Shown piece by piece: positions 3,875 through 17,371 of a stretch of 31,743 bases of DNA (position 1 is the stretch's first letter; each line of letters starts with the position of its first letter). The stretch comes from Kofleriaceae bacterium. GTDB taxonomy: Bacteria; Myxococcota_A; Polyangia; Haliangiales; Haliangiaceae. The notes under the pieces are model-generated. The model had not been told where the DNA came from. It saw nothing but the letters and a program-made list of their open reading frames with translations, and searched no databases. The translations under genes were made by a program, and so were the position numbers. Location of the stretch: positions 1-31,743 of the forward strand of contig DATMCI010000056.1 of NCBI GenBank assembly GCA_035558535.1, given 5' to 3'.

Positions 3875-4339
3875 TCACGAGTCGACGAGCAGCTCCGTCA
3901 CCCGGCCGAGGTGCGCGTCGACCTCGACGCGCGCGTCGTAGGCCGGGCCCGCCTCCGGCGGATCACTCCGCGTGAACGTCACGACGAAGACGGGGCCGCG
4001 GCGCGTCACCTCGACGCCGCCGCCCGGCGACAGCTCCACGTTGTCGACGAGGATCTCGCGCGCCACCCGGACCGCCTCCGCTTCGGAGATCTCCGCGGGC
4101 GCGAGGCCGCGCTCCGCCATCACGGCCTTGAGCCTGCGGTACCGCTCGAGCAGCATCGCGCGGTTGCCCCAGTCCTCCTGCTCGTCCGCGACGCGCGGCT
4201 CGAGGAACGTCCCGCCCTCCCCGATCATGCCGTTGAACGGATTCAGCATCACTTGTGCGTAGTCCCAGTCGTGGTGGAACACCATCTCGAACGCCCAGAC
4301 GAGCTCGGTCAGCGCGTCGTGTAGCTCGCGGTCACTCAT
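3875..4339 (-). CDS. Hypothetical protein (154 aa), divergent from the STAND gene
   Basis: Only the 3' 465 nt of the giant 3875..8917 shadow ORF show protein-like composition (MSDRELHDALTELVWAFEMVFHHDWDYAQVMLNPF...). ATG at 4339 (alternative 4348). The rest of that ORF is antisense to the STAND gene. Confidence 0.5.
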   Translation of the reverse strand: MSDRELHDALTELVWAFEMVFHHDWDYAQVMLNPFNGMIGEGGTFLEPRVADEQEDWGNRAMLLERYRRLKAVMAERGLAPAEISEAEAVRVAREILVDNVELSPGGGVEVTRRGPVFVVTFTRSDPPEAGPAYDARVEVDAHLGRVTELLVDS

Positions 4340-4468
4340 GCCGCGCATGATGACAGCCCGCCGCGCGCGAAAACCGGACAGAAAACCGGACAGCCGCGCC
4401 TCCTCGAGCGCGCCAGCATCGTGCAGCAAACGGCGGCACCCCTGGCAATATAGATGTCGGAAGGAGCG

Positions 4469-7400
4469 ATGGACCGCCTCGACCTCGCGCAGGAGCCACG
4501 CAGCGTTGTCCCGGGCCCGTCCGCCCGGTTCGGCAAGAGCCTCGCCGTGGTGATCGGGGTCGACGTCTACGGCGAGGGCATCGCGCCGCTCCGCTCGGCA
4601 GTCGCCGACGCGAAGGCGATCGCGGCGGCGCTGGAGCGCGATCACGGCTTCGAGACGTGGCGCCTGCTCGACGGCGACGCGGAGCTCCCGCACCTGCTCG
4701 CGCTCTTGCGCGAGCGGCTGCCCGCCGCGCTCGAGCAGGGCGATCGGCTCGTGCTCTACTTCGCCGGCCACGGCATCGCGCTCGATGGGGACGCCGGCCC
4801 GGCCGGCTACCTGCTGCCGGCGGGCGCCCAGCGCGCCGAGCGGGATGGCTTCTTGCCGATGCACGTCGTGCACGGCGAGCTGGCGCGGCTCCCGGTGCGC
4901 CACGCGCTGATCATCCTCGACTGCTGCTTCGCGGGCACGTTCCGGTGGTCGAGCCTGCGCGACGTCGTGCCCGAGTCGTCGACGATCTACCGCGAGCGCT
5001 ACGACCGCTACCTCGAGAGCGCGGCGTGGCAGGTGCTGACGTCGGCGAGCAGCGACCAGCTCGCGCTCGACATGCTCGCGAACGACCGCGGCGAGGGCGA
5101 GGGCGTGCACTCGCCGTTCGCGCTCGCGCTGCTCGACGGCCTCGCGGGCGCCGCCGACTACACGCGGGACAACGTGATCACCGCCGACGAGCTGGCGATG
5201 TACGCGCGCGAGCGCGTCGCGTCGGTCGCCGAGTCGGTGGGCCGCCGCCAGGTCCCGCAGCTGTTCCCGCTCGATCGCCACGACGCGGGCCAGTTCGTGT
5301 TCCAGGTGCCGGGCCGCGCGGTCGCCCTCGCCGCCGCGCCGCCGCTCGACGAGGCCCAAAACCCCTACCGCGGCCTGCGATCGTTCCTCGAGGAAGACCG
5401 CGGCCTGTTCTTCGGCCGCGACGCGGTCGTCGAGCGGCTCGCCCTGGCGGCCGCCGCGCGACCGCTCACCGTGGTCGCCGGCCCGTCGGGCTCGGGCAAG
5501 TCGAGCCTCGTCCACGCCGGGCTCGTGCCGGCGCTGCGCGCGCGAGGCTTCACCGTGCTGCCATCGCAGCGCCCGGCGCGCGCGCCGCTCGACGCCCTCG
5601 ACGCGTGGACGCGCGCGCTCGGCGCCGAGCCGATCCCCGGCGCGCCGGTGCGGTCGTGGGCGACCGCGGTCGCGGCGCGGGCCGCCGCCCACCCGGACCG
5701 CCCGTGGCTCGTCATCGTCGATCAGCTCGAGGAGCTGCTCACCCACCGGACCGCCGAGGCCGATCGGCTCGCGTTCCTCGGCGCGCTGGCGGACGCGCTC
5801 CGGGCCGCGCCGCAGCTCCACGTGATCGTGACGGTCCGCTCCGACGCCGAGCCGCAGCTCCACGACACCGCGCTCGCGCCGTGGTGGGCGGCCGGGCGGT
5901 TCGCCGTCCCCGCGATGACCCGCGACGAGCTCCGCCAGATCATCGAGCGGCCGGCGACCGCGGCCGTGCTGCACTTCGAGCCGTCGCGGCTGGTCGATCG
6001 GCTGATCGACGACGTCGCGCTGGTCCCAGCGCCGCTGCCGCTCCTGTCGTTCGCGCTGTCCGAGCTGTACCGCCGCTCGTGGGCGCGCTGGCAGGCCGGC
6101 GACCGCGACCGCGGGCTGCGCGAGGCCGACTACGACGAGATGGGCAGCGTGGCGCGGGCGCTGACCCAGCGCGCGACGGCTGTGCACGACGCGCTGGTGG
6201 CCGAGGACGCGCAGTACGCGACCACGATCCGCAACGTGTTCACCCGAATGGTCGCGCTCGTCGGCGGCGAGCTCGCGCGGCGGCGGGTGCCGCGCCACGA
6301 GCTTGCGTACGAAGATCCGGCCGAGGACCGACGCGTCGACGACGTCCTGCTGCGGTTCCACGACGCGCGCCTGATCTCGCTCGGGACCGAGCCGGCCCCC
6401 GACGGCGGCGCGAGCGCGTACGCCGAGCCGACGCACGACGAGCTGGTGCGCGGCTGGGCCCAGGTCCGCCGCTGGCTCGACGAGCTCGACGCGCCGGCCG
6501 GGACGCGGGCGCTGCTCGGCGCGCTGGCAGACGCGGTGCGGCCGTGGCGGACCCAGGGCCGCGCCGACTCGTACCTGTGGAGCGACGCGCGCGTCGAGCT
6601 CCTGAGCGCGCTCGGGCGGAGCCGCCGGCTCGCGCTCAACGCCGACGAGGCGCGCTTCGTCGCGCGCGCAGCGCGGCGGCGGCGCTCCCAGCGCAGGCGC
6701 CTGGTCGGGGGACTCTTGGCCGTGATCGTCGTCCTGGCCGTGGCCGCCGGCGTCGCCCTCTCGCAGCGCGATCAGGCGCAGCAGAACGCCGCGCGCGCAG
6801 AGGAGAACGCCGCCCGCGAGAAGCTCGCGCAGCAGCGCGCGTCGTCCGAGGCCCAGCGGGCCACGAGCCTGCTCGCGCGCATGTATCAGGAGGCCGGCCA
6901 CCAGTTCCTGCTCGATGGGCACCGCTTCAAGGCGCTGCCGTTCCTGGTGGCGGCGCGGCGCGAGGGCGAGGCGGGCACGCCGCTGCGAATGCTGTTCTGG
7001 ACGGCGACGCGCGCGCTGCCCAGAACGCCGCCGCTCGATCACCAGCGCGCCGTGACGAGCGCCGCGTTCAGCCCCGACGGCGCCCGCGTCGTGACCGGGG
7101 GCTTCGACCATACCGCGCGCGTCTGGGACGCCGCGACCGGTAGGCCGCTCCTGCCGCCCCTCCAGCACGGGGGCATCTTGAAGCGCGTCACGTGGAGCTC
7201 CGACGGCAAGCGGATCGTCACCGCCTCGCTCGACCACCGCGTGCGGATCTGGGACGCCGCGGCCGGCACGCTCCTCGTCACGATCCAGGACCGGAGCGCG
7301 CCGAGCGTCGCCGTGCTCAGCCCCGACGGCGCCCGCCTGCTCACCGCGAACAACAACGACACCGCGCAGCTCTGGGACGCCGCGACCGGCAAGCCGCTCG

Positions 7401-9115
7401 GCCCGCGCTTCCAGCACGCCGGCGCGGTGACCGACGCCGCGTGGAGCCCCGACGGCGCCCGCGTCGTCACCGCCAGCCGAGACTACACCGCGCAGGTCTG
7501 GGACGCCGCGACCGGCAAGCCGCTCGCGCCGCCGCTCCGGCACGCCAGCGTGGTGAACAGCGCCGCGTGGAGCCCCGACGGCGCCCGCGTCATCACCGCC
7601 AGCACCGACAAGACCGCGCGCGTCTGGGACGCCGCGACCGGCGAGTCGATCGGCCCGCCGCTCTTGCACCGCGAGAACGTCCGCGCCGCCTCGTTCAGCC
7701 CCGACGGTGCGCTCGTCGTCACCGCCAGCGACGACAAGACCGCGTGCGTCTGGGACACCGGCGCGGGCCGCTTCCAGCCCCTCGAGCACCAGCGCGCCGT
7801 GACAGGTGCGGCGTGGAGCCCCGACGGAACTCGCGTCGTCACCGCCAGCACCGATGGCACCGCGCGGATCTGGGACGCCGCGACCGGCCGGCCGCTCTCG
7901 CCGCCCCTCGAGCACACGGACGAGATCCTCCACGTCGCGTGGAGCCCCGACGGTGCCCGCATCGTCACCGCGAGCAGAGACAAGACCGCGCGCGTCTGGG
8001 ACGCCGCGAGCAGCGGGCCGCTCTCCCGGTCCCTCGCGCACACGCACGCCGTGAAGACCGCCGCGTGGAGCCCCGACGGCGCCCGCGTCGTCACCGGAGG
8101 CGACGATCATGCCGCGCACATCTTCGCCGCCGCGACTGGCAAGTCGCTCGGCCCGCCCCTCGAGCACCGGGGCTCGGTGAACTGGGTCGCGTGGAGCCCC
8201 GATGGCGCCCGCGTCGTCACCGCCAGCGCCGACGACACCGCGCGGATCTGGAGCGCCGCCACCGGCAAAGAGCTCGCCACCCTCCAGCACCAGAACAAGG
8301 TGTGGCGCGCCGCGTGGAGCCCCGACGGCACCCGCGTCGTCACCGCCAGCTTCGACAAGACCGCGCGGATCTGGAGCGCCGCCACCGGCAAAGAGCTCGT
8401 CACCCTCCAGCACCGGGGCGAGGTGCGAAGCGCCGCGTGGAGCCCCGACGGCACCCGCGTCGTCACCGCCAGCGCCGACAACACCGCGCGCGTCTGGGAC
8501 GCCGCCACCGGCCGCGCCCTGCCCCCGCCGCTCGAGCACCGCGGCCCCGTGTGGAGCGTCGCGTGGAGCCCCGACGGCACCCGCGTCGTCACCGCCAGCG
8601 CCGACAACACCGCGCGCGTCTGGGACGCCGCCACCGGCGCCCAGCGCGCCCGCCCCCTCGAGCACCAGGGCGCCGTGCACGATGCGTCGTTCAGCCCCGA
8701 CGGCTCGCTCGTCGTCACCGCCAGCGCCGACAAGACCGCGCGCGTCTGGGACGCCGCCACCGGCATGCCGGCGTCTCCGGCCTTCGAGCACCGGGACAAC
8801 GTGAGCAGCGCCGCGTTCAGCCCCGACGGCGCGAGCATCGTCACCGCGAACGACGACGGGACCGCGTCCGTGTGGAGCCTCGCCACTCACAAGCTGCTCG
8901 GCGCGCCGTTCCAGCACCGAGAGCTCGTGTGGACCGCAGCGTTCAGCCCCGACGGTACGCGCGTCGTCACCGCCAGCGACGACCAGACCGCGCAGATCTG
9001 GGAGCTCCCGATCGCCAGCGGCTCCCTCGCGGAGTGGGACGAGCTCGCGGAGCGGAGCCCGTACCTGCTCAGTAGCGGCGTGCTCGTGCCGCGCCTTTTG
9101 CGCCCCGCGCCGTGA
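4469..9115 (+). CDS. STAND NTPase: N-terminal caspase-like peptidase C14 domain - NACHT/AAA P-loop NTPase - single hydrophobic helix + coiled coil - ~15 WD40 repeats
   Basis: SD aaggag lies 5 nt before ATG at 4469. Caspase His/Cys dyad context: YFAGHG ... IILDCCFAG. Walker A VVAGPSGSGKSSLV, Walker B LVIVDQLEE. Hydrophobic segment LVGGLLAVIVVLAVAAGVAL. C-terminal tandem WD40 units are built around the recurring WSPDG/VWDAATG motifs. Confidence 0.85.
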   Translation: MDRLDLAQEPRSVVPGPSARFGKSLAVVIGVDVYGEGIAPLRSAVADAKAIAAALERDHGFETWRLLDGDAELPHLLALLRERLPAALEQGDRLVLYFAGHGIALDGDAGPAGYLLPAGAQRAERDGFLPMHVVHGELARLPVRHALIILDCCFAGTFRWSSLRDVVPESSTIYRERYDRYLESAAWQVLTSASSDQLALDMLANDRGEGEGVHSPFALALLDGLAGAADYTRDNVITADELAMYARERVASVAESVGRRQVPQLFPLDRHDAGQFVFQVPGRAVALAAAPPLDEAQNPYRGLRSFLEEDRGLFFGRDAVVERLALAAAARPLTVVAGPSGSGKSSLVHAGLVPALRARGFTVLPSQRPARAPLDALDAWTRALGAEPIPGAPVRSWATAVAARAAAHPDRPWLVIVDQLEELLTHRTAEADRLAFLGALADALRAAPQLHVIVTVRSDAEPQLHDTALAPWWAAGRFAVPAMTRDELRQIIERPATAAVLHFEPSRLVDRLIDDVALVPAPLPLLSFALSELYRRSWARWQAGDRDRGLREADYDEMGSVARALTQRATAVHDALVAEDAQYATTIRNVFTRMVALVGGELARRRVPRHELAYEDPAEDRRVDDVLLRFHDARLISLGTEPAPDGGASAYAEPTHDELVRGWAQVRRWLDELDAPAGTRALLGALADAVRPWRTQGRADSYLWSDARVELLSALGRSRRLALNADEARFVARAARRRRSQRRRLVGGLLAVIVVLAVAAGVALSQRDQAQQNAARAEENAAREKLAQQRASSEAQRATSLLARMYQEAGHQFLLDGHRFKALPFLVAARREGEAGTPLRMLFWTATRALPRTPPLDHQRAVTSAAFSPDGARVVTGGFDHTARVWDAATGRPLLPPLQHGGILKRVTWSSDGKRIVTASLDHRVRIWDAAAGTLLVTIQDRSAPSVAVLSPDGARLLTANNNDTAQLWDAATGKPLGPRFQHAGAVTDAAWSPDGARVVTASRDYTAQVWDAATGKPLAPPLRHASVVNSAAWSPDGARVITASTDKTARVWDAATGESIGPPLLHRENVRAASFSPDGALVVTASDDKTACVWDTGAGRFQPLEHQRAVTGAAWSPDGTRVVTASTDGTARIWDAATGRPLSPPLEHTDEILHVAWSPDGARIVTASRDKTARVWDAASSGPLSRSLAHTHAVKTAAWSPDGARVVTGGDDHAAHIFAAATGKSLGPPLEHRGSVNWVAWSPDGARVVTASADDTARIWSAATGKELATLQHQNKVWRAAWSPDGTRVVTASFDKTARIWSAATGKELVTLQHRGEVRSAAWSPDGTRVVTASADNTARVWDAATGRALPPPLEHRGPVWSVAWSPDGTRVVTASADNTARVWDAATGAQRARPLEHQGAVHDASFSPDGSLVVTASADKTARVWDAATGMPASPAFEHRDNVSSAAFSPDGASIVTANDDGTASVWSLATHKLLGAPFQHRELVWTAAFSPDGTRVVTASDDQTAQIWELPIASGSLAEWDELAERSPYLLSSGVLVPRLLRPAP
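7040..9000 (+). repeat. Nucleotide-level tandem repeat array (period 126 bp = one WD40 unit) inside the STAND gene, including two exactly identical 78-bp copies at 8435-8512 and 8561-8638
   Basis: Strings such as gcgtggagccccgacggc(g/a)cccgcgtcgtcaccgccagc and gacaagaccgcgcgcgtctgggacgccgc recur at a 126-bp spacing many times. Confidence 0.85.
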
Positions 9116-9169
9116 CCGGCCGTCGCGCCCGCGTGCGCGCGGCGCGGCGATCGGCGATCATGCCCGTCC

Positions 9170-10984
9170 ATGCACGCGCAGCTCCTCGCCGAGATCCTCG
9201 CGGAGCCGCGCTCGATCGCGCCGCGGCTGGTCTACGCCGACGCGCTGCTCGAGGCTGGCGACCCGCGCGGCGAGCTCATCCAGCTCCAGTGCGCGCTCGA
9301 GGAGCAGGGCGCCGACGATCCGGCGCGCGAGGAGCGCGAGGCGCGCGCGGCTGACCTGCTCGCGCAGCACGAGCCGGCGTGGACGCGCGAGCTGCGCGCG
9401 AGCTGCCAGCTCCACGATCACCCGTTCGAGCTCGGCTTCCGCCGCGGCTTCGTCGAGCGCGCGCGGGTGCCGGGCAGCCGCGTGCCGGAGGTGCTGCCGC
9501 TGCTCGCGGCGCAGACCCCGCTGCGCGAGCTGCAGCTCCGCATCAAGGGTTCCATCGAGGCGCTCGCCGAGGTCCCTGGCCTGATGGAGCTGGAGGGCCT
9601 GTCGCTGGACGGCTCGACGACCGCCGGCGACCGCGCGCGCGCGTTCGCGCGCTGGCCGCACCGCGGGCGGCTGCGCTCGCTCGAAGCCGACGACGGGACC
9701 GCCATCGCGCACGCGGTGGCCGAGACGCCGGCGCTGGCCGGGCTCGAGAGCCTCGCGCTGAGCTTCGTCGACGCCCGGGGGGTCGCGGCGCTCGCCGCGG
9801 CGGCGCACCTCGCGCCCCTGCGCAAGCTGCGGCTCGCCCACGCCGTGATCGACGGCGCGGAGCTCGCCGCGCTCGGGCGCGCCGAGGTGTGGCCCGCGCT
9901 CGAGGCGCTCGATCTCCGGCGCTCGCGCGTGGGCGGCAACGGCGCGCTCGCGCTCGCGCACCTGGCCGCCGCGCGCCTGCGCGAGCTGCGCTGCGATCAG
10001 GGACTCGCCGCCGACGACGTGCTCGCGCTCGCCGCCCGCGCCCCGGACCTCGAGGTCGCCGATCTCGAGGGCGTCCGGCTCCAGGACACCGGCGCGCGGG
10101 CGCTCCTCCACGGCGCGGCCGCGCGCGCGAAGCTGCGCCACCTCGATCTCTCCGACACCGGGCTCTCGGACCAGGGCCTCGCCGGCGTGGTGCGCGCGCT
10201 CGAGGACGCCAGCCTGCGCCGGCTCGCGTGCTGCAAGAACGATCTGTCCACCGCCGCCACCGCGGCGATCGCGGCGAGCCGCGCGCTCGACGGTCTGCAG
10301 CAGCTGTTCCTGGCGGGGTGCCCGCTCGGCGACGCCGGGGTGACGGCGCTCGCGAGGAGCGCGCACCTGCCGGCGCTCCGCGTGCTCGATCTCGCGCGGA
10401 CCGAGTGCGGCCGCGGCGGGCTCCAGGCGCTCGGCCAAAGCGAGCTCGGGGCGCGCCTGGTCTCGCTGGAGCTCGGCTACAATGAGCTCGTCGATCGCGA
10501 TCTCGGCGCGCTGCTCGCCGGGCGTCGCCTCGATCGGCTCGAGCGCCTCACCCTCGGCGGCCTGGACCTGGAGCTGCCCGGCGCCCGCGTGCTCGCCGGC
10601 TCGCCGCTCGCCGCGCGCCTCCGGGCCCTCACCCTCGGGCGGCTCCAGCCCGACGCGGCCGCCCTGCTCGCGGCGGCCGACCTGCCCGAGCTGCGGCAGC
10701 TCGTCATCGGCGACTTCGACGATCGCGCCGCCGCGATCCTCGCCCAGTCGCGCGGCACGCCGTGCCTCTCGCACGTGGTGATGTTCAGCTCCCAGCTCAC
10801 CGACCAGGGCGCGTTCGCGCTCGCGGAGGCCCCCGGGCTCACGCGGATCACGTGGCTCGAGCTCGACGCGCCGCACGTGACCGATGCCGGCAAGGACGCG
10901 CTGCGGCGACGCTTCGGCCACCGCGTCGGCGTGTTCTCCGGCGCCACGCTGCACGCGTTCTCGGCGCTGTCGCGCCGGTTCTGA
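9170..10984 (+). CDS. TIGR02996-type N-terminal 'repeat-companion' domain fused to ribonuclease-inhibitor-like leucine-rich repeats
   Basis: N-terminus LVYADALLEAGDPRGELIQLQ matches the TIGR02996 signature. Repeated L-rich ~28-aa units follow (LDLSDTGLSDQGLAGVVRAL, LAGCPLGDAGVTALA...). Starts 55 bp after the STAND stop on the same strand. Confidence 0.7.
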   Translation: MHAQLLAEILAEPRSIAPRLVYADALLEAGDPRGELIQLQCALEEQGADDPAREEREARAADLLAQHEPAWTRELRASCQLHDHPFELGFRRGFVERARVPGSRVPEVLPLLAAQTPLRELQLRIKGSIEALAEVPGLMELEGLSLDGSTTAGDRARAFARWPHRGRLRSLEADDGTAIAHAVAETPALAGLESLALSFVDARGVAALAAAAHLAPLRKLRLAHAVIDGAELAALGRAEVWPALEALDLRRSRVGGNGALALAHLAAARLRELRCDQGLAADDVLALAARAPDLEVADLEGVRLQDTGARALLHGAAARAKLRHLDLSDTGLSDQGLAGVVRALEDASLRRLACCKNDLSTAATAAIAASRALDGLQQLFLAGCPLGDAGVTALARSAHLPALRVLDLARTECGRGGLQALGQSELGARLVSLELGYNELVDRDLGALLAGRRLDRLERLTLGGLDLELPGARVLAGSPLAARLRALTLGRLQPDAAALLAAADLPELRQLVIGDFDDRAAAILAQSRGTPCLSHVVMFSSQLTDQGAFALAEAPGLTRITWLELDAPHVTDAGKDALRRRFGHRVGVFSGATLHAFSALSRRF

Positions 10985-11009
10985 GGCACGATGTGGAGAG
11001 GAGAACTGG

Positions 11010-11747
11010 ATGGACAGCCCCGGCGATGAGTGGCAGGCGCGTCAGGAGCTCGCGGCGTGCTATCGCGTGTTCGATCACCTCGGCTGGACCGAGCTGATCT
11101 ACAACCACATCTCGCTGCGCGTGCCCGGGCCCGAGCGGCACTTCCTGATCAACCCGTTCGGGCTCCACTACAGCGAGGTCCGCGCGTCGAACCTGGTGAA
11201 GGTCGATCTCGACGGCGCGATCATCGGCACCTCGGCGTGGGGCATCAACCCGGCCGGCTTCGCGCCGCACGCGACCATCCACCGCGCGATCGAGCGGGCG
11301 CACTGCGTGATGCACACGCACACGACGACCGGCATGGCCGTCGCCTGCTCGGCGCAGGGCCTGTCGATCAGCAACTTCTACGCGGCGCAGCTCGGCGAGC
11401 GCCTCGCCTATCACGACTTCGAGGGGATCACCGTGCACGCCGACGAGGGCGCGCGGTTGCTCGCGAACATCGGCGACCGGCAGGCCGTGATCCTGCGCAA
11501 CCACGGGCTGCTCGCCTGGGGCGAGACCCTGCCGCAGACGTTCCACCTGCTCTGGACGCTGCAGCGCGCGTGCGACGTGCAAGTCGCCGGCGCGGCCCTC
11601 GGCCCGCCGCTCCTCGTCCCCGAGCCGATCCAGCGCCGCTGCGCCGCCGACGCGCACAAGGTCAGCGCCAGCGCGGCGTGGGGCCAGGACGTCTTCGACG
11701 CGCTGGTGCGCCTCGTCGACCGCACCGATCGCAGCTGGCGCGACTGA
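11010..11747 (+). CDS. Class II aldolase/adducin family protein
   Basis: RBS ggagaggag precedes ATG at 11010. Metal-binding region HAIERAHCVMHTHTTTGMAVAC and NHGLLAWGETL match class II aldolase/epimerase motifs. Confidence 0.85.
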   Translation: MDSPGDEWQARQELAACYRVFDHLGWTELIYNHISLRVPGPERHFLINPFGLHYSEVRASNLVKVDLDGAIIGTSAWGINPAGFAPHATIHRAIERAHCVMHTHTTTGMAVACSAQGLSISNFYAAQLGERLAYHDFEGITVHADEGARLLANIGDRQAVILRNHGLLAWGETLPQTFHLLWTLQRACDVQVAGAALGPPLLVPEPIQRRCAADAHKVSASAAWGQDVFDALVRLVDRTDRSWRD

Positions 11748-11793
11748 CGCCCCGCGCCCCGCGACTCCGCCAGCCCAGCGGGAACAAGCCGCC

Positions 11794-11833
11794 GATCGAT
11801 CAGCTAGTCGCGTCGAACGGGGCGTAGCCGCGG
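11794..11833. repeat. 40-bp direct repeat copy A (gatcgatcagctagtcgcgtcgaacggggcgtagccgcgg), 36/40 identical to copy B at 21342-21381
   Basis: Direct comparison of the two stretches. Copy A sits in the convergent gap between the aldolase (+) and VOC (-) genes. In an otherwise non-coding frame it would read ...[10 protein letters not shown], which is the MVP C-terminus. Confidence 0.85.
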
Positions 11834-11834
11834 C

Positions 11835-12284
11835 TCACCGCGCAAACAGGCGCTCCGGATCCTTGAACGACTTGAGCTCGATGTGATTGCCGCTGGGATC
11901 GCGCAGGAACATCGTCGCCTGTTCGCCGACCTGCCCCGGAAACCGCACGTGGGGCGCGATCACGAACGTCACACCCGCGCGCTCGAGCCGCCCCGCCAGG
12001 TCGTGCCACGTATCCCACGGCAGGATGGCGCCGAAATGCGGCACCGGCACCTGCTTGCCGTCAACTGGGTTCTCGCCAGCGGGGGTGATCGGTTCGTGCG
12101 GCTGCCCCCGAGACGCGAGGTGATGCGCCGTGAGCTGATGCCCGAAGAAGTCGAGATCGATCCACGACTCACTCTCTCGACCGACCCGGCAACCGAGCAG
12201 CTCGCAGTAGAACGCCCGGGTGGCCTCCAGATCGGTGACAGGGAACGCGAGATGGAACGGGGGCAGACTCATCGCGGCAAGCAT
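11835..12284 (-). CDS. VOC family (glyoxalase/bleomycin-resistance/dioxygenase fold) protein
   Basis: [23 protein letters not shown] ... [29 protein letters not shown] ... [13 protein letters not shown], the typical paired beta-alpha-beta-beta-beta module. Confidence 0.8.
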
Positions 12285-12335
12285 CGCATGTCGCCGCCAG
12301 CGACGCGGCAGAACCACGACGAATGCGCGATCGCG

Positions 12336-12770
12336 TCAACCGCCTCGAGCTCCCGGCGCCGGGGCTTCGGCGCGATGCCCGGTCAAGGAAAGGAGGATGT
12401 GCCCTGCGAGTGCTCCGAGCTCCGTCTGAAGGAACCTGGAATCGATGGCACTACCGAAACGCACCCAAAGCGGATCCCAATAAACTTCCGTTCGTGTGCT
12501 GGTCACTTGCAGGTAATGCTTCAACGACGCGAGGCGCTGATGGACATCCGGAGCGGCGACTTCGTCGGGAGCCACGATGTCGAGATAACTCACGATCCGG
12601 TTCTCCCCCGGCGGCACCTCCAGCCACTGGCGAACGAGCTCCCCCGGGTTCGTGTCTGGAAGCAGCTCGTCCGGGACGCGCGTCCAGACGGACGACCCAT
12701 GGACGTACTGATAGACGTTGACGCCGCGTGCTCCGCGCGGCGACACGACACGCTGCGCGGTCAGTAGCAC
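12336..12770 (-). CDS. Hypothetical protein (144 aa), third gene of the low-GC HEPN operon; GTG start overlapping the upstream stop (TAGTG)
   Basis: Protein-like composition. 1-nt overlap with the upstream gene. No family recognised. Confidence 0.5.
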   Translation of the reverse strand: MLLTAQRVVSPRGARGVNVYQYVHGSSVWTRVPDELLPDTNPGELVRQWLEVPPGENRIVSYLDIVAPDEVAAPDVHQRLASLKHYLQVTSTRTEVYWDPLWVRFGSAIDSRFLQTELGALAGHILLSLTGHRAEAPAPGARGG

Positions 12771-13192
12771 TACGCCGCCTTCCGGGGCAGCTCACTGCTA
12801 CCGGTTCCTGGCGCCCCGCTTCGCGGATGCAACGCGATGTCGGTCCCCAGTGGAGGAACTTCCACATCGAGTATACGAGCGGCGGTGTCCACATCGAGCG
12901 TGACCTCGGCCAGGAGCGCCCGTTCGACGAAATCAGAGTAGAGGCGAGCAGACTCGGCGCGTGTATGGAAGATGACGATCACGGGACCGCCCGCCACTGC
13001 CTCCATCTCCTTCCGGATCGGCCGCAAGCTGCGAAACAGCTCGCGCTGCTCGGCGGCATCGGCGTTGAAGATCTCCAACGTTCGCTCGCGGCCATCGTAG
13101 TCGCCCAAGACGTTCTGCGCCCACCGAACCGGACGGCCGCTGAGCGCATCGCTGATGCGCCGTGCGAGCTCTTCGCGCACTGGCGTCGTCAT
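12770..13192 (-). CDS. Hypothetical protein (140 aa), middle gene of the low-GC HEPN operon; ATG overlaps the HEPN stop (ATGA)
   Basis: Translational coupling on both sides. No GS-x-D-x-D nucleotidyltransferase motif, so it is not a canonical MNT partner. No family recognised. Confidence 0.5.
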   Translation of the reverse strand: MTTPVREELARRISDALSGRPVRWAQNVLGDYDGRERTLEIFNADAAEQRELFRSLRPIRKEMEAVAGGPVIVIFHTRAESARLYSDFVERALLAEVTLDVDTAARILDVEVPPLGTDIALHPRSGAPGTGSSELPRKAA

Positions 13193-13578
13193 GACGCCTT
13201 CCTTTCGAGCACCTCGGCGACCAACCGCTGTGCCATCACTTGGGCGTCGGAAGCCTCGTCGTACTCGATCATGTCTTCGTAGTAGTCTGCCTTGACGCGA
13301 AGATCGCGAAGTCTCGAGAGATCATCACACAAATCGTCATCCAAGATTCCCCACTCCTGGGCACGGCTGGGAAGGGTGTCATGACGATAATACTGCGCCC
13401 CGCGAGAATCGAACGAGAGGCCCTCTTGCTGAGCGCGGTCTGCGACGGCTTGGTAGGCTGCGTAATACGCGCGCGCCGTCGCCGCGTTGGACAACGGTTC
13501 CACCCGGCCATCGTCTGATCGATCGAGCAAGCGCTCGGCCGCCTCGAGGTTCTCCCTTGCCTTCTCATCGAGCCGCAT
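13189..13578 (-). CDS. HEPN-like domain protein (first gene of a translationally coupled three-gene operon)
   Basis: MRLDEKARENLEAAERLL ... ATARAYYAAYQAVADRAQQEGL ... SRGAQYYRHD ... LRDLRVKADYYEDMIEYDEASDAQVMAQRL. This is an all-alpha HEPN-like pattern with an R-x6-H (RGAQYYRH) candidate catalytic motif. ATG at 13578 is preferred over 13659, which would overlap the divergent gene. Confidence 0.5.
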   Translation of the reverse strand: MRLDEKARENLEAAERLLDRSDDGRVEPLSNAATARAYYAAYQAVADRAQQEGLSFDSRGAQYYRHDTLPSRAQEWGILDDDLCDDLSRLRDLRVKADYYEDMIEYDEASDAQVMAQRLVAEVLERKAS

Positions 13579-14724: not shown

Positions 14725-15696
14725 ATGCAGCGCTACGAGCTGGCGGACGGGACCTCGAACAAGTTCTGGGAGATCGGGCTCGACGGTAAGACCGTCACGG
14801 TGCGGTTCGGCCGGATCGGCACGACCGGCCAGACGCAGGTCAAGACGCACGCCTCGCCCGAGGCCGCACGCAAGGAGCGCGACAAGCTCGTGGCCGAGAA
14901 GACGAAGAAAGGCTACCGCCTCGCGGCCGCGCGTGGCCCCGCGGCCGCGAAGGCCGGCGCGAAGGCCAGCGCGAAGACCAAGGCCAAGGCCAAGCTGGTG
15001 CCGCTGCTCGCCGACGGCGCGCCGAAAGACGTCGTCGCGCTGCGCAAGCTCGCCGCGCAGGCGCGCGAAGGAGACGAGGCGATGACGCGCACGTACATCA
15101 TCACGGTGACGAAGGGCAAGCCCGGCGTCATGCGCGCTGGCGGCCCACCGATCGGCGTCACCGACAAGACGCGCCCCAAGTACGACGGCGCGTTCATGCA
15201 CCACCTCATCACGCTCGATCTCGACGCGATGCCCGAGCTGCGCAAGCAGCACAAGCCGCTCGCGCGCGCCCGCGCGCTCGCGCTGTTCATCTCCAACGCG
15301 ATGGACAACGAGGCATTCGACGACGACACCCAGGAGACCGCCGTCCTCGCGCTCGCCCCCAAGGACATCGCCCGCGGCGAGTGGACCGGCCCCGCCGTCG
15401 GCGATCCGAAGCCGCACGCACTCGCGGCGTGGCCCGTCGACGTCCCCGCGCGCGTGTTCACGTTCGATCGCTACGCCACCGACGACGATGCCGACGACAC
15501 CGACGATCCCATGGCCGAGCTCCACGACGAGCTCATGTCCGCGTGCCGCGCGGGCGGCCAGGTCATCCACTGGTCCGGCGACGATCCCGACGACCGCTGG
15601 GTGTTCCAGTTCAACGAGGATCTCGTCGAGGTCAACCTCGGCGACGCCGGCACGATGTACGTGTTCACCGATCGCGCTTACTGGGACGGACACTGA
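14725..15696 (+). CDS. WGR domain + DUF1963 (YwqG-like) domain protein
   Basis: N-terminus MQRYELADGTSNKFWEIGLDGKTVTVRFGRIGTTGQTQVK...KGY matches WGR. The C-terminal region (GGPPIG, HHLITLDL, DAGTMYVFTD) matches the DUF1963 pattern. Confidence 0.65.
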   Translation: MQRYELADGTSNKFWEIGLDGKTVTVRFGRIGTTGQTQVKTHASPEAARKERDKLVAEKTKKGYRLAAARGPAAAKAGAKASAKTKAKAKLVPLLADGAPKDVVALRKLAAQAREGDEAMTRTYIITVTKGKPGVMRAGGPPIGVTDKTRPKYDGAFMHHLITLDLDAMPELRKQHKPLARARALALFISNAMDNEAFDDDTQETAVLALAPKDIARGEWTGPAVGDPKPHALAAWPVDVPARVFTFDRYATDDDADDTDDPMAELHDELMSACRAGGQVIHWSGDDPDDRWVFQFNEDLVEVNLGDAGTMYVFTDRAYWDGH

Positions 15697-15697
15697 G

Positions 15698-17371
15698 ATG
15701 CTGCCTGGAAACTGGACCGCGGAGGACCTCACCGCGGAGCTCAGCTCGCACGGGGGCGTCATCCTCGAACGCGGCCTCCACTACATCCAATCGCCCATCT
15801 ACCTGCCGAGCGGGACGACCCTCGAGGGCCTCGGCTACTCGACGCACATCGCCTGCACTGGCGACTTCCCCGCGTTCATCACGCGCGAAGGAGCCGGCGG
15901 CCCCCGGTCCGAGCGCGTGACCGTGCAGAACCTCCGCGTCCGGCGGAACAACACCTCAGGCGCGGGGACGCCGCAGACGCAGAGCATCGGCATCCGCTGG
16001 TGGGGCAACGATCTTCGCTTCGAGGATCTCTGGCTCGAGGATCACTTCTGCAGCACCCAGGGCGAGGACGTCGGGCTCGGCGGCGCGGCAGACTACGTGA
16101 GCCCGACCGCGCCGACGGCGTGCGGCCCGAACGCCCTGACCGACAGCACGCGGTCGTGGGCGCCCAACGAGCACGCCGGGCGGTGGGTCTACTCGGGCAA
16201 CGCGTCGATGTTCCTCATCACCGGCAACAACGCCACGACGCTGTACCTCGATGCCGGCGGCGCGACCCCCGAGAGCTTCCCGTACACGATCTTCCTCGGC
16301 GTCGCCGAGCTCGATCCGAGCTACGACGTGAAGCTCATCAACGTCCGCTCGAGGCACGTGGCCGGCTTCAGTCTGTACGGCTCCCAGTGGGGGTTCGAGG
16401 TCAACTCCGTCCGCGGCTACGTGCAGCGCGACTGCCAGCACACAGGCTCGCGCCTCGACGGCACGAAGCTCCGGCGCAACACGCAGGACGTGCTGATCGA
16501 TGGCGGTCGCTACTACGGCTGTCGCCAGGCCGGGATCAACCTCTTCGGGGGCGGGTACCGCGTGAAGCTGCGCGGCGGCGTCTGCGACGGGAACGGCATC
16601 GCCGGCGTCCCCGCGAGCGGGATCGAGATCAAGACCTCCTGGCTGAACCCATGCTTCGGGAATGTCGCCGAGATCGAGATCGATGGCTGGACGTGCCGCG
16701 ACAACGCCGGCTCGGGGCTCGTCATCAACCGCGACGCCGACGCGCCCGTGACGCGGTCGCTCGTCCAGCACGTGTCGATCCGAGGCGGCGTGATGGAGGC
16801 GAACCGGTGCGGCTGGGACGACGGATCGGCCAGCGGCGCCGGCATGTACCTCCGCGGCCGCGACATCACCGTCGAAGGGACACGGCTGATCCGCAACCTG
16901 GGGGTCGGCCTGTGGGCGACGAGCGACGCGCGCGACGTCACCCTCGCGAACATCGCCTGCATCGCCAACGGCGCGCACGCCGCCGGTGGCGGCTCGAACC
17001 TCGTGATCGATGGACAGCGGATCAAGGTCGCGCACCTCACCTCGCACGGGAAGGAGTCGACCGACGTCTCCGACGACGCCGAATTCGACGCGCTCCCCGT
17101 CGTCACCGCGAACGCGGTGCTGGTCCAGAGCACGGCTCGCGCGGTCACGATCTGGATCCGCGACGCAGACGTGCGCGGCCACAGCCTGACCATCCCGATC
17201 AACACCGTCGCTGGCGCCGAGCTCATCGCCCACTACGAAGGGGCCGGCGCGCCGTACCGGTTCGGCGGGATCGGCTCCACGTTCCAGCGGACCGACGGCG
17301 GGACCGGCACGTCGCTCTACGTCAAGGAGAGCGGCACCGCGGTGACCCCGACCGGCTGGACCGGGAAGTAG
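15698..17371 (+). CDS. Right-handed parallel beta-helix repeat protein (pectate-lyase/tailspike-like fold), no signal peptide
   Basis: ATG at 15698, 1 nt after the WGR gene stop. Recurring beta-helix rungs (GIEIKTS..., NAGSGLVINRDAD, SIRGGVMEANRCG, GVGLWATSDARDVTLANIACIANG, NLVIDGQRIKVAHL). Confidence 0.65.
   Translation: MLPGNWTAEDLTAELSSHGGVILERGLHYIQSPIYLPSGTTLEGLGYSTHIACTGDFPAFITREGAGGPRSERVTVQNLRVRRNNTSGAGTPQTQSIGIRWWGNDLRFEDLWLEDHFCSTQGEDVGLGGAADYVSPTAPTACGPNALTDSTRSWAPNEHAGRWVYSGNASMFLITGNNATTLYLDAGGATPESFPYTIFLGVAELDPSYDVKLINVRSRHVAGFSLYGSQWGFEVNSVRGYVQRDCQHTGSRLDGTKLRRNTQDVLIDGGRYYGCRQAGINLFGGGYRVKLRGGVCDGNGIAGVPASGIEIKTSWLNPCFGNVAEIEIDGWTCRDNAGSGLVINRDADAPVTRSLVQHVSIRGGVMEANRCGWDDGSASGAGMYLRGRDITVEGTRLIRNLGVGLWATSDARDVTLANIACIANGAHAAGGGSNLVIDGQRIKVAHLTSHGKESTDVSDDAEFDALPVVTANAVLVQSTARAVTIWIRDADVRGHSLTIPINTVAGAELIAHYEGAGAPYRFGGIGSTFQRTDGGTGTSLYVKESGTAVTPTGWTGK

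Follow-up and report, generated by a model that had tools for sequence, protein, structure and literature searches.

A Single-Gene Orthocaspase-nSTAND1-WD40 Protein with a Predicted Membrane Anchor in a Kofleriaceae Genome

Organization of the STAND Gene

The window analyzed in this study is the whole of a 31,743-nucleotide stretch of contig DATMCI010000056.1 from a Kofleriaceae bacterium, which has a guanine-cytosine (GC) content of ~70%. Our subject is the gene at 4469-9115, whose 1548-amino-acid product (hereafter, the STAND protein) joins a caspase-like protease, an nSTAND1 nucleoside triphosphatase (NTPase), a transmembrane (TM) helix and an array of WD40 repeats. An initial annotation of this DNA, made from its sequence, had read the gene as one half of a module resembling NOD-like receptors (NLRs), the other half being a downstream gene for a leucine-rich repeat (LRR) protein. 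Our analyses led us to a different view, and on balance we think it probable that the gene acts alone and that its product is a single-pass membrane receptor in which a ligand would drive a STAND-caspase switch.

High-GC DNA contains numerous shadow open reading frames, and GC by codon position was used to tell real genes from them; the values for the STAND gene were 0.75/0.56/0.96. A Shine-Dalgarno sequence, GGAAGGAG, lies directly 5' of the ATG at 4469, the start that is also given by the public gene call. A start at 4454 was rejected, as an exact-sequence look-up gave no match for it and the recorded protein begins at 4469. The gene and its parts are as follows.

4469-9115, plus strand: single gene for the 1548-amino-acid orthocaspase-nSTAND1-TM-WD40 protein (open reading frame, public gene call, Pfam)
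4538-5263, plus strand: caspase-fold (Peptidase_C14, p20-like) domain, residues ~24-265 (Pfam)
5363-6568, plus strand: nSTAND1 NTPase module, residues ~299-700 (PF20703)
6668-6757, plus strand: basic stop-transfer cluster RAARRRRSQRRR (residues 734-744) and single TM helix LVGGLLAVIVVLAVAAGVA (residues 745-763) (hydropathy)
6758-7042, plus strand: helical or coiled-coil stalk and linker after the TM helix, residues 764-858 (AlphaFold2, AF2)
7043-9043, plus strand: 16 tandem WD40 repeats, residues 859-1525 (PF00400, Tandem Repeats Finder, repeat alignment)

The Caspase-Like Domain and the NTPase

The N-terminal domain matched Peptidase_C14 (PF00656) with an E-value of 3.2e-15, which places it in the caspase-hemoglobinase fold (MEROPS C14, PF00656), and it has the canonical dyad motifs xxGHG and DxCxxG. 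Its catalytic His101 (nucleotides 4769-4771) lies in YFAGHG and its Cys153 (4925-4927) in DCCFAG. Both residues were invariant in our alignments of 39 and of 26 homologues, as was Cys152, and DCCFAG was found in 117 of the 120 best database matches. The initial annotation had read the dyad from these two motifs and had named its loss on proper alignment as an objection to the assignment; the dyad was retained in both alignments.

A profile built from 39 family members matched the metacaspases AtMC4 and Yca1 and the paracaspase MALT1 in PDB, with YFAGHG aligned to the catalytic HYSGHG of AtMC4 and Yca1. The family profile was required for this result, as a single-sequence phmmer search of residues 1-870 against PDB returned only P-loop and TM noise. 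From the position of the motif and established knowledge of metacaspases, we take the Cys of DCCFAG to be the equivalent of that in DSCHSG. On these comparisons, the protease domain is a bona fide caspase homologue and is probably active.

The ATPase that follows had been called a NACHT-type NTPase, and that assignment was not upheld. The nSTAND1 model (PF20703) matched with 291.6 bits (E 1.8e-86) over profile positions 1-378 of 379, whereas the match to NACHT (PF05729) was partial and scored 29.6 bits, and the NTPase is best assigned by these scores to nSTAND1, not NACHT. The other domain searches that the initial annotation had proposed, those for Peptidase_C14, WD40, LRR and TIGR02996, did return the families it expected. 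The Walker A motif GPSGSGKS occupies residues 338-345 (nucleotides 5480-5503) and the Walker B motif LVIVDQLEE residues 414-422 (5708-5734). In the homologue alignment GPSGSGKS and the Walker B pattern hhhhDQxEE were invariant, with G338, G341, G343, K344, D418 and E421 all unchanged, and the protease dyad, the Walker A Lys and the Walker B Asp alike were invariant across 26-39 homologues.

The AF2 model had a predicted local distance difference test score (pLDDT) of 82.7 and a predicted template modelling score (pTM) of 0.73. In the NTPase region, where pLDDT was mostly >85, the secondary structure comprised an alpha/beta NTPase core and then helical and beta-hairpin modules, and fold matches to Cdc6/Orc1 and PAB2304 covered 240-280 residues. 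The order of parts, from NTPase through helical and beta-hairpin modules to 16 WD40 repeats, is that of a STAND protein.

Family Size and Distribution

An exhaustive HMMER search, run on 1.84 billion sequences that each represent a cluster at 50% identity, matched 53,168 proteins at E <= 0.001, 25,720 at E <= 1e-10 and 4,100 at E <= 1e-30. Among the 150 matches listed, every E-value was <1e-153, and most aligned from about residue 20 to residues 770-800, that is, with the TM helix included. Filamentous cyanobacteria (Moorena, Calothrix, Nostoc, Microcoleus and Scytonema) accounted for the great majority of the named matches, and further copies were found in Myxococcota, Bacteroidota (Saprospiraceae, Lewinella) and Chloroflexota. 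The genomes with the nearest relatives of the STAND gene are metagenome-assembled and labelled Deltaproteobacteria DP_38 (61% identity) and Kofleriaceae. In cyanobacterial orthocaspases, the most frequent accessory domains are reported to be WD40 and AAA_16 (PMC8283722). By sequence, then, the STAND protein is an ordinary member of a large bacterial family that has already been catalogued.

The WD40 Repeat Array

The initial annotation had noted ~15 WD40 repeats. The array itself was recovered with high significance (PF00400, E 5e-134, in 15 stretches), and the count was revised, as 16 protein units of 40-42 amino acids were obtained when the repeats were anchored on their S-P-D-G motif. Tandem Repeats Finder reported a 126-nucleotide period with 15.7 copies and 72% matches at nucleotides 7027-8993. 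The units share a mean pairwise identity of 53%, and up to 81%. By column entropy over the 42-amino-acid unit, the variation clusters at a few positions, namely the first six residues, the x-D-x turn and the loop after WDAATG. Such positions of a WD40 unit form the top face of the propeller, where ligands bind. In this respect the array looks like a receptor surface, and 16 repeats are enough for two beta-propellers.

The Membrane Helix and Predicted Topology

Directly after the basic run RAARRRRSQRRR, residues 745-763 form a hydrophobic 19-mer with a Kyte-Doolittle value of 2.77. An uninterrupted helix in the AF2 model (residues 725-812) spans the basic cluster, the hydrophobic segment and the polar stalk, with low confidence past residue ~800, and the internal hydrophobic helix with coiled coil described in the initial annotation was borne out. 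The helix had also been described there as unusual for a STAND protein. This is correct for STAND proteins in general; within the orthocaspase-nSTAND1 family, however, the TM helix is the rule, and a hydrophobic 19-mer (Kyte-Doolittle >=1.6) was found 380-470 amino acids past Walker A in 95 of the 99 homologues that were of sufficient length to judge. Earlier publications have remarked on a TM helix in STAND/orthocaspase proteins of this kind (PMC7475262; PMC12642450). The mean number of Lys and Arg residues was 5.8 in the 15 residues before the hydrophobic segment and 2.5 in the 15 after it, and therefore, by the positive-inside rule, the N-terminal part is predicted to be inside and the C-terminal part outside.

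Comparison of the STAND protein with its relatives revealed additional variation in what follows the helix. Relatives that are 65-73% identical in the caspase-ATPase part differ markedly after it. The closest, P0001 (73% identical; gene at 10001-13378 of locus L153), has a dCache_1 domain and then a second TM helix after the TM helix of the family. A dCache domain joined to a second TM helix is how extracytoplasmic sensors are classically built. At the same place, repeats with conserved pairs of Cys residues (Sel1/TPR-like) are found in P0002 and P0003, TPR-like helical regions in P0024 and P0029 and acidic low-complexity tails in P0031 and P0052, and in several relatives the protein stops shortly past the helix. 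The more distant P0096 (47% identical) has an FGE-sulfatase domain and no TM helix. This pattern looks like recent swapping of sensor domains on a constant signalling chassis. The WD40 array of the STAND protein is probably periplasmic, because the TM helix is conserved, the charge bias is of the positive-inside type and relatives have dCache or Cys-pair-repeat ectodomains. The most economical reading of these sequences would be a cytoplasmic caspase-ATPase, one TM helix and an interchangeable extracytoplasmic sensor, here a double WD40 propeller.

The initial annotation had implied a different arrangement, that of a cytosolic sensor like Avs or bNACHT. In such an arrangement the helix would be buried or would serve only as a tether on the cytoplasmic face of the membrane, and the WD40 array would sense a phage protein and set off abortive infection through the caspase. 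Characterised antiviral STANDs do share the effector-STAND-repeat architecture (PMC12642450; bNACHT preprint 10.1101/2022.07.19.500537), the variability of the WD40 repeats is receptor-like, and the sensor of the FGE type in the helix-less P0096 is presumably cytosolic. However, the strength and near-universal retention of the hydrophobic segment, the marked charge bias, the dCache_1 domain and second TM helix of the closest relative and the Cys-pair repeats of others all speak for a WD40 array outside the cytoplasm, and the cytosolic picture was not supported for this reason. Nor did PADLOC-DB v2 return any match to Avs or bNACHT models for the STAND protein; it returned nothing for the LRR protein. 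We consider a cytosolic sensor unlikely, and of the effector-NTPase-sensor logic proposed initially we retain the tripartite layout and not the cytosolic, bNACHT/Avs-type sensor.

The LRR Neighbor

Downstream of the STAND gene, the initial annotation had described a same-strand gene for an LRR protein of the ribonuclease-inhibitor type with a TIGR02996 domain, and the gene was confirmed as such.

9116-9169, plus strand: intergenic spacer of 54 nucleotides between the STAND and LRR genes (sequence)
9170-10984, plus strand: gene for a 604-amino-acid protein with TIGR02996 domain and ribonuclease-inhibitor-type LRRs, which we place outside the STAND system (TIGR02996, LRR_6)

Its N-terminal TIGR02996 "repeat-companion" domain (residues 2-43) scored 47 bits against a cutoff of 29.05, and the LRR_6 match had an E-value of 5.9e-12. 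A TM helix or signal peptide was not evident in the protein. A literature search for TIGR02996 found no papers.

The claim that the two genes form a paired module, in which the LRR protein would be co-transcribed with the STAND protein and serve it as a co-sensor, inhibitor or substrate, deserved attention, given their shared strand, the 54-nucleotide gap and their similarly high GC. No promoter-like or terminator-like site above background was found in the spacer, and its predicted RNA fold was no better than that of shuffled sequence (z +0.74). Because the spacer has no terminator-like structure, read-through transcription from the STAND gene into the LRR gene is possible. The LRR gene is itself followed at 26 nucleotides by an aldolase gene of like orientation, however, and tight same-strand spacing is thus not specific to the STAND-LRR pair.

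The genomic distribution of the two genes also spoke against a pairing. No LRR/TIGR02996 gene was found beside STAND relatives in any of 147 loci, of which 143 came from collection scans and four were fetched separately. For the 143 loci, 88 of which extend at least 1.5 kb past the STAND stop codon, the tblastn queries were the whole LRR protein and its first 110 residues, and two hidden Markov models (HMMs; one full length, one of the N-terminal domain) built from 28 sequences of the LRR family were also run. Three of the closest WD40-bearing relatives of full length were examined and had no LRR gene at their loci; what follows the STAND gene in them is a DUF4096 fragment and a CHAT-STAND gene, a GerE regulator, and a partial gene without assigned function. 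At the P0001 locus, no gene is called downstream of the STAND gene in the ~170 nucleotides of contig past its stop codon. Approached from the other side, the LRR protein has ~27 full-length orthologues with 43-74% identity, and its relatives carry the labels Myxococcota, Kofleriaceae or Polyangiales. In five of five orthologue contexts (46-74% identity) there was no caspase or STAND gene nearby and the neighbors differed among contexts; the 74%-identical orthologue, for example, sits after a gene for an FHA-sigma54 activator.

The LRR gene is thus found independently of STAND genes, which the initial annotation had itself named as the finding that would speak against its module. In addition, an LRR protein without a signal could not contact the WD40 array if the array is periplasmic. 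We regard a two-gene module as very improbable, and on the sequence comparisons the LRR gene is best treated as an incidental neighbor of the STAND gene.

Two further observations concern these genes. Beside one LRR orthologue there is a second gene with a TIGR02996 domain (L150, 11849-13639, plus strand; 4e-12 with the N-terminal HMM of the family), which indicates that TIGR02996 paralogues can cluster with each other, not with STAND genes. The STAND and LRR genes have 75-78% GC, compared to 65-70% in the 4-kb flanks on either side, and both have a GC of 0.96 at third codon positions, with 0.86-0.93 in their immediate neighbors. As a HAMP-GAF kinase gene (22443-25511) and a gene for a major vault protein (MVP) homologue in the window are comparably high in GC, the elevated values may reflect an Ala/Arg/Gly-rich composition rather than joint acquisition.

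Other Candidate Partner Genes

STAND systems that bear a protease often have an adjacent pro-toxin gene of the EACC1, Pepco, MBL or alpha/beta-hydrolase type (PMC7159879, PMC12642450). Among the neighboring open reading frames we found no Pepco/Trypco, MBL, alpha/beta-hydrolase or gasdermin gene, in a search that covered catalogued families and in which PADLOC was run on the STAND and LRR genes. A gene for the single-TM EACC1 protein was not found 5' of the STAND gene, the gene in that place being divergently oriented and without a Pfam match, and the model for EACC1-associated caspases (NF047832) scored 69 bits, below its cutoff of 140.

A different partner was observed in many relatives. Of the related loci, 87 reach far enough upstream for this comparison; in 38 of them, mostly cyanobacterial, the STAND relative is directly preceded on the same strand by a second caspase gene that lacks an NTPase domain, often at a gap of <250 bp. 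Its product is ~700 or ~1300 amino acids long and has a D[SC]CHSG motif (e.g., L105 7618-9927, L125 7799-9931, L019 5968-9930 and L069 6162-9965). This conserved two-caspase cassette fits published "initiator/executioner" speculation. On neither side do STAND relatives have a conserved neighbor gene that is shared with the locus studied here.

In the genomes of two of the nearest full-length relatives, other genes of the caspase superfamily were observed within a few kb. One encodes a 1771-amino-acid CHAT-NPHP3_N STAND protein (L154, 5360-10675, minus strand) and the other an 834-amino-acid Peptidase_C14 protein (L155, 12031-14535, minus strand), which suggests local clustering of death-protease genes in these genomes.

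Genes Surrounding the STAND Locus

Upstream of the STAND gene the window contains genes for a Uma2 endonuclease, a GMC oxidoreductase and an OmpA-like protein, and the following divergent gene.

3875-4348, minus strand: gene of 157 amino acids to which no function was assigned (coding-type GC by codon position, 0.75/0.42/0.94)

This gene had no Pfam match and is neither EACC1 nor Pepco. It had no tblastn match in any related locus, i.e., it is not kept beside STAND relatives, and no synteny of the flanking genes (this gene, the OmpA-like gene and the aldolase gene) with STAND or LRR relatives was conserved. A 1680-amino-acid open frame antisense to the STAND gene (3875-8917, minus strand) is a high-GC shadow frame, of which only the 5' part at 3875-4348 is of coding type and called. 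Downstream of the STAND and LRR genes lie the class II aldolase gene, a glyoxalase gene and several small genes without assigned function.

Three small genes at 12336-13578 on the minus strand have overlapping stops and starts and encode proteins of 144, 140 and 129 amino acids to which no family was assigned, the last having a very weak HEPN-like match at E 0.021; the run could be a toxin-antitoxin-like cassette. At 14725-17371 on the plus strand, past the STAND locus and before the MVP homologue, a gene for a WGR-domain protein (323 amino acids, PF05406, 1.5e-18) is directly followed by one for a 557-amino-acid right-handed beta-helix protein. PARPs and MolR-type proteins are the other known carriers of the WGR domain.

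The MVP homologue itself (18871-21375, plus strand; 834-847 amino acids) matched MVP_shoulder at 6.6e-25 and Vault_3 at 1.5e-11 in Pfam, and phmmer matched it to the rat and human MVP structures at 2e-16 over residues 476-762. The NACHT-WD40 protein TEP1 is a component of eukaryotic vaults. We considered whether the STAND gene is linked to the MVP homologue and dropped the idea, as the two are 10 kb apart with unrelated genes on both strands between them, and as the TEP1 beta-propeller matches of the STAND protein in Pfam are generic WD40 matches. Bacterial MVP homologues have been described before (bioRxiv 10.1101/872010), and the present one is a known but uncommon kind of protein.

Proposed Mode of Action and Alternatives

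The single-pass receptor that we favor would work as follows. The caspase-like protease and nSTAND1 ATPase would be cytoplasmic, the basic cluster and TM helix would anchor the protein with its N terminus in and its C terminus out, and the helical stalk would hold the 16 WD40 repeats on the periplasmic side. A ligand from the periplasm or the envelope would bind the variable face of the propellers, and the stalk and TM helix would relay the signal to the STAND module. Nucleotide exchange at nSTAND1 would then lead to oligomerisation, which would bring the caspase domains together and activate them, as in apoptosomes and inflammasomes. Cleavage of cytoplasmic targets that are not encoded nearby may follow, with growth arrest or cell death as the outcome, be it in defence or in a social or developmental setting. 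Of this picture, the sequences show which domains are present, that the catalytic residues are conserved, that the TM helix and its charge bias run through the family, that the domain after the helix is exchanged among relatives and that no partner gene is conserved; the topology, ligand sensing, oligomerisation, protease activation and outcome are inferred, with STANDs of the apoptosome and inflammasome type as the model.

The same receptor could also serve a milder purpose. In a social myxobacterium, an envelope or extracellular cue (nutrients, kin or development) might call forth limited regulatory proteolysis by a protease that signals and does not kill. The chromosomal context of the STAND gene is housekeeping-like, there is no toxin-like effector nearby, dCache-type ectodomains, which close relatives have, are typically found in small-molecule signal transduction, and the orthocaspases of some cyanobacteria have been tied to the stress response instead of to death (PMC7889975). 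However, STAND-caspase fusions elsewhere have been linked to death or defence (PMC7159879, PMC8195603, PMC12642450), and the repetitive WD40 array, its concentrated variability and the wholesale swapping of sensors look more like a diversifying, immune-type receptor. A purely regulatory protease is, in our view, rather doubtful.

Several points weigh against the receptor that we propose. To our knowledge, no member of the orthocaspase-nSTAND1-WD40 family has been characterised experimentally. The N-in, WD40-out topology is predicted from the positive-inside rule and from analogy with relatives, and it would entail export of a C-terminal part of ~780 amino acids (764-1548, with a 16-blade WD40 array of ~670 amino acids) behind an internal signal-anchor, which we consider plausible. 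PADLOC-DB v2 gave the STAND protein a weak match to a generic "caspase" model (1.2e-6) and P-loop-only matches to mad3 and mad8. The locus does not allow a substrate or effector of the protease to be identified, and no recognisable defence island was evident among the neighbors in the window, where the defence-type signals were the Uma2 endonuclease and the very weak HEPN-like match, several kb off. A second caspase gene was also absent from the window. As neither it nor a catalogued pro-toxin gene was found there, the myxobacterial copy appears to be a self-contained single-gene unit.

More tentatively, the family of the STAND protein may consist of true transmembrane NLR-like receptors, in which a hypervariable WD40 ectodomain switches on a STAND-driven caspase across the membrane, although we would stop short of calling this probable. 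Candidate ligands for the WD40 array would be periplasmic or extracellular, such as phage components during entry, molecules of competitors or kin, or signs of envelope damage. If this were true, a bacterial "extrinsic" death-receptor pathway, previously proposed in silico for cyanobacteria, would be contained within one polypeptide, and the myxobacterial copy would be a minimal version of it, without partner caspase or pro-toxin and convenient for testing. As a sequence finding our result adds little, as TM-bearing caspase-STAND-WD40 proteins are abundant and have been catalogued. It does remove a tempting but false module of an NLR with an LRR partner, and it moves the working picture from that of a cytosolic, Avs-like sensor towards that of a receptor spanning the membrane, which changes the experiments that make sense. 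A stand-alone copy with all its functional motifs intact and without accessory genes would offer a clean entry to the study of STAND switching across a membrane.

Comparison with Known Systems

In comparison to the Apaf-1 apoptosome with caspase-9, the STAND protein has its protease in the same polypeptide, an nSTAND1 rather than an AP-ATPase, a TM helix between the ATPase and the WD40 array, and no CARD domain. It resembles Avs/bNACHT proteins and the protease-effector modules (PMC12642450) in its tripartite effector-STAND-repeat logic and its protease output, and "transmembrane STAND ATPases" fused to proteases are among the sensors of such modules in the preprint of Evans et al. 2025 (PMC12642450). 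Unlike these, it has an NTPase of another clade and no adjacent pro-toxin gene, and its sensor is predicted to lie outside the cytoplasm, whereas characterised Avs/bNACHT proteins sense phage proteins in the cytosol.

The nSTAND1 proteins are a clade of conflict-system STANDs (Kaur, Burroughs, Iyer, Aravind, eLife 2021, PMC8195603). With these systems and the EACC1-caspase system (eLife 2020, PMC7159879) the STAND protein shares the clade, with a full-length PF20703 match, and an N-terminal caspase effector, as well as a variable C-terminal sensor region and enrichment in multicellular or social bacteria. The EACC1-caspase system differs in its 5' EACC1 gene and in the fit of its caspase model (69 bits against a cutoff of 140), and the STAND protein gave no sign of EAD or death-like adaptor domains.

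The closest likeness is to the cyanobacterial p20-AAA_16/NACHT-TM-WD40 orthocaspases (e.g., Ava_0039, Ava_3079 and GEI7407_1667; PMC7475262, PMC8283722), which NCBI names "caspase family protein / nSTAND1 domain-containing NTPase". The myxobacterial locus is set apart from theirs by its high-GC, Myxococcota-like contig, the lack of an upstream second caspase and 16 highly similar repeats. The domain order and the size of ~1450-1500 amino acids are alike, the stretch of caspase, nSTAND1 and TM helix is 41-49% identical, the DCCFAG, GHG and Walker motifs are identical, and the TM helix is in the same place. For these cyanobacterial proteins a p20, AAA_16/NACHT, TM and "extracellular" WD40 arrangement and the idea of an "extrinsic death receptor" have been put forward in silico (PMC7475262), and the proposed topology, N-in with WD40 out, is common to them and to the STAND protein.

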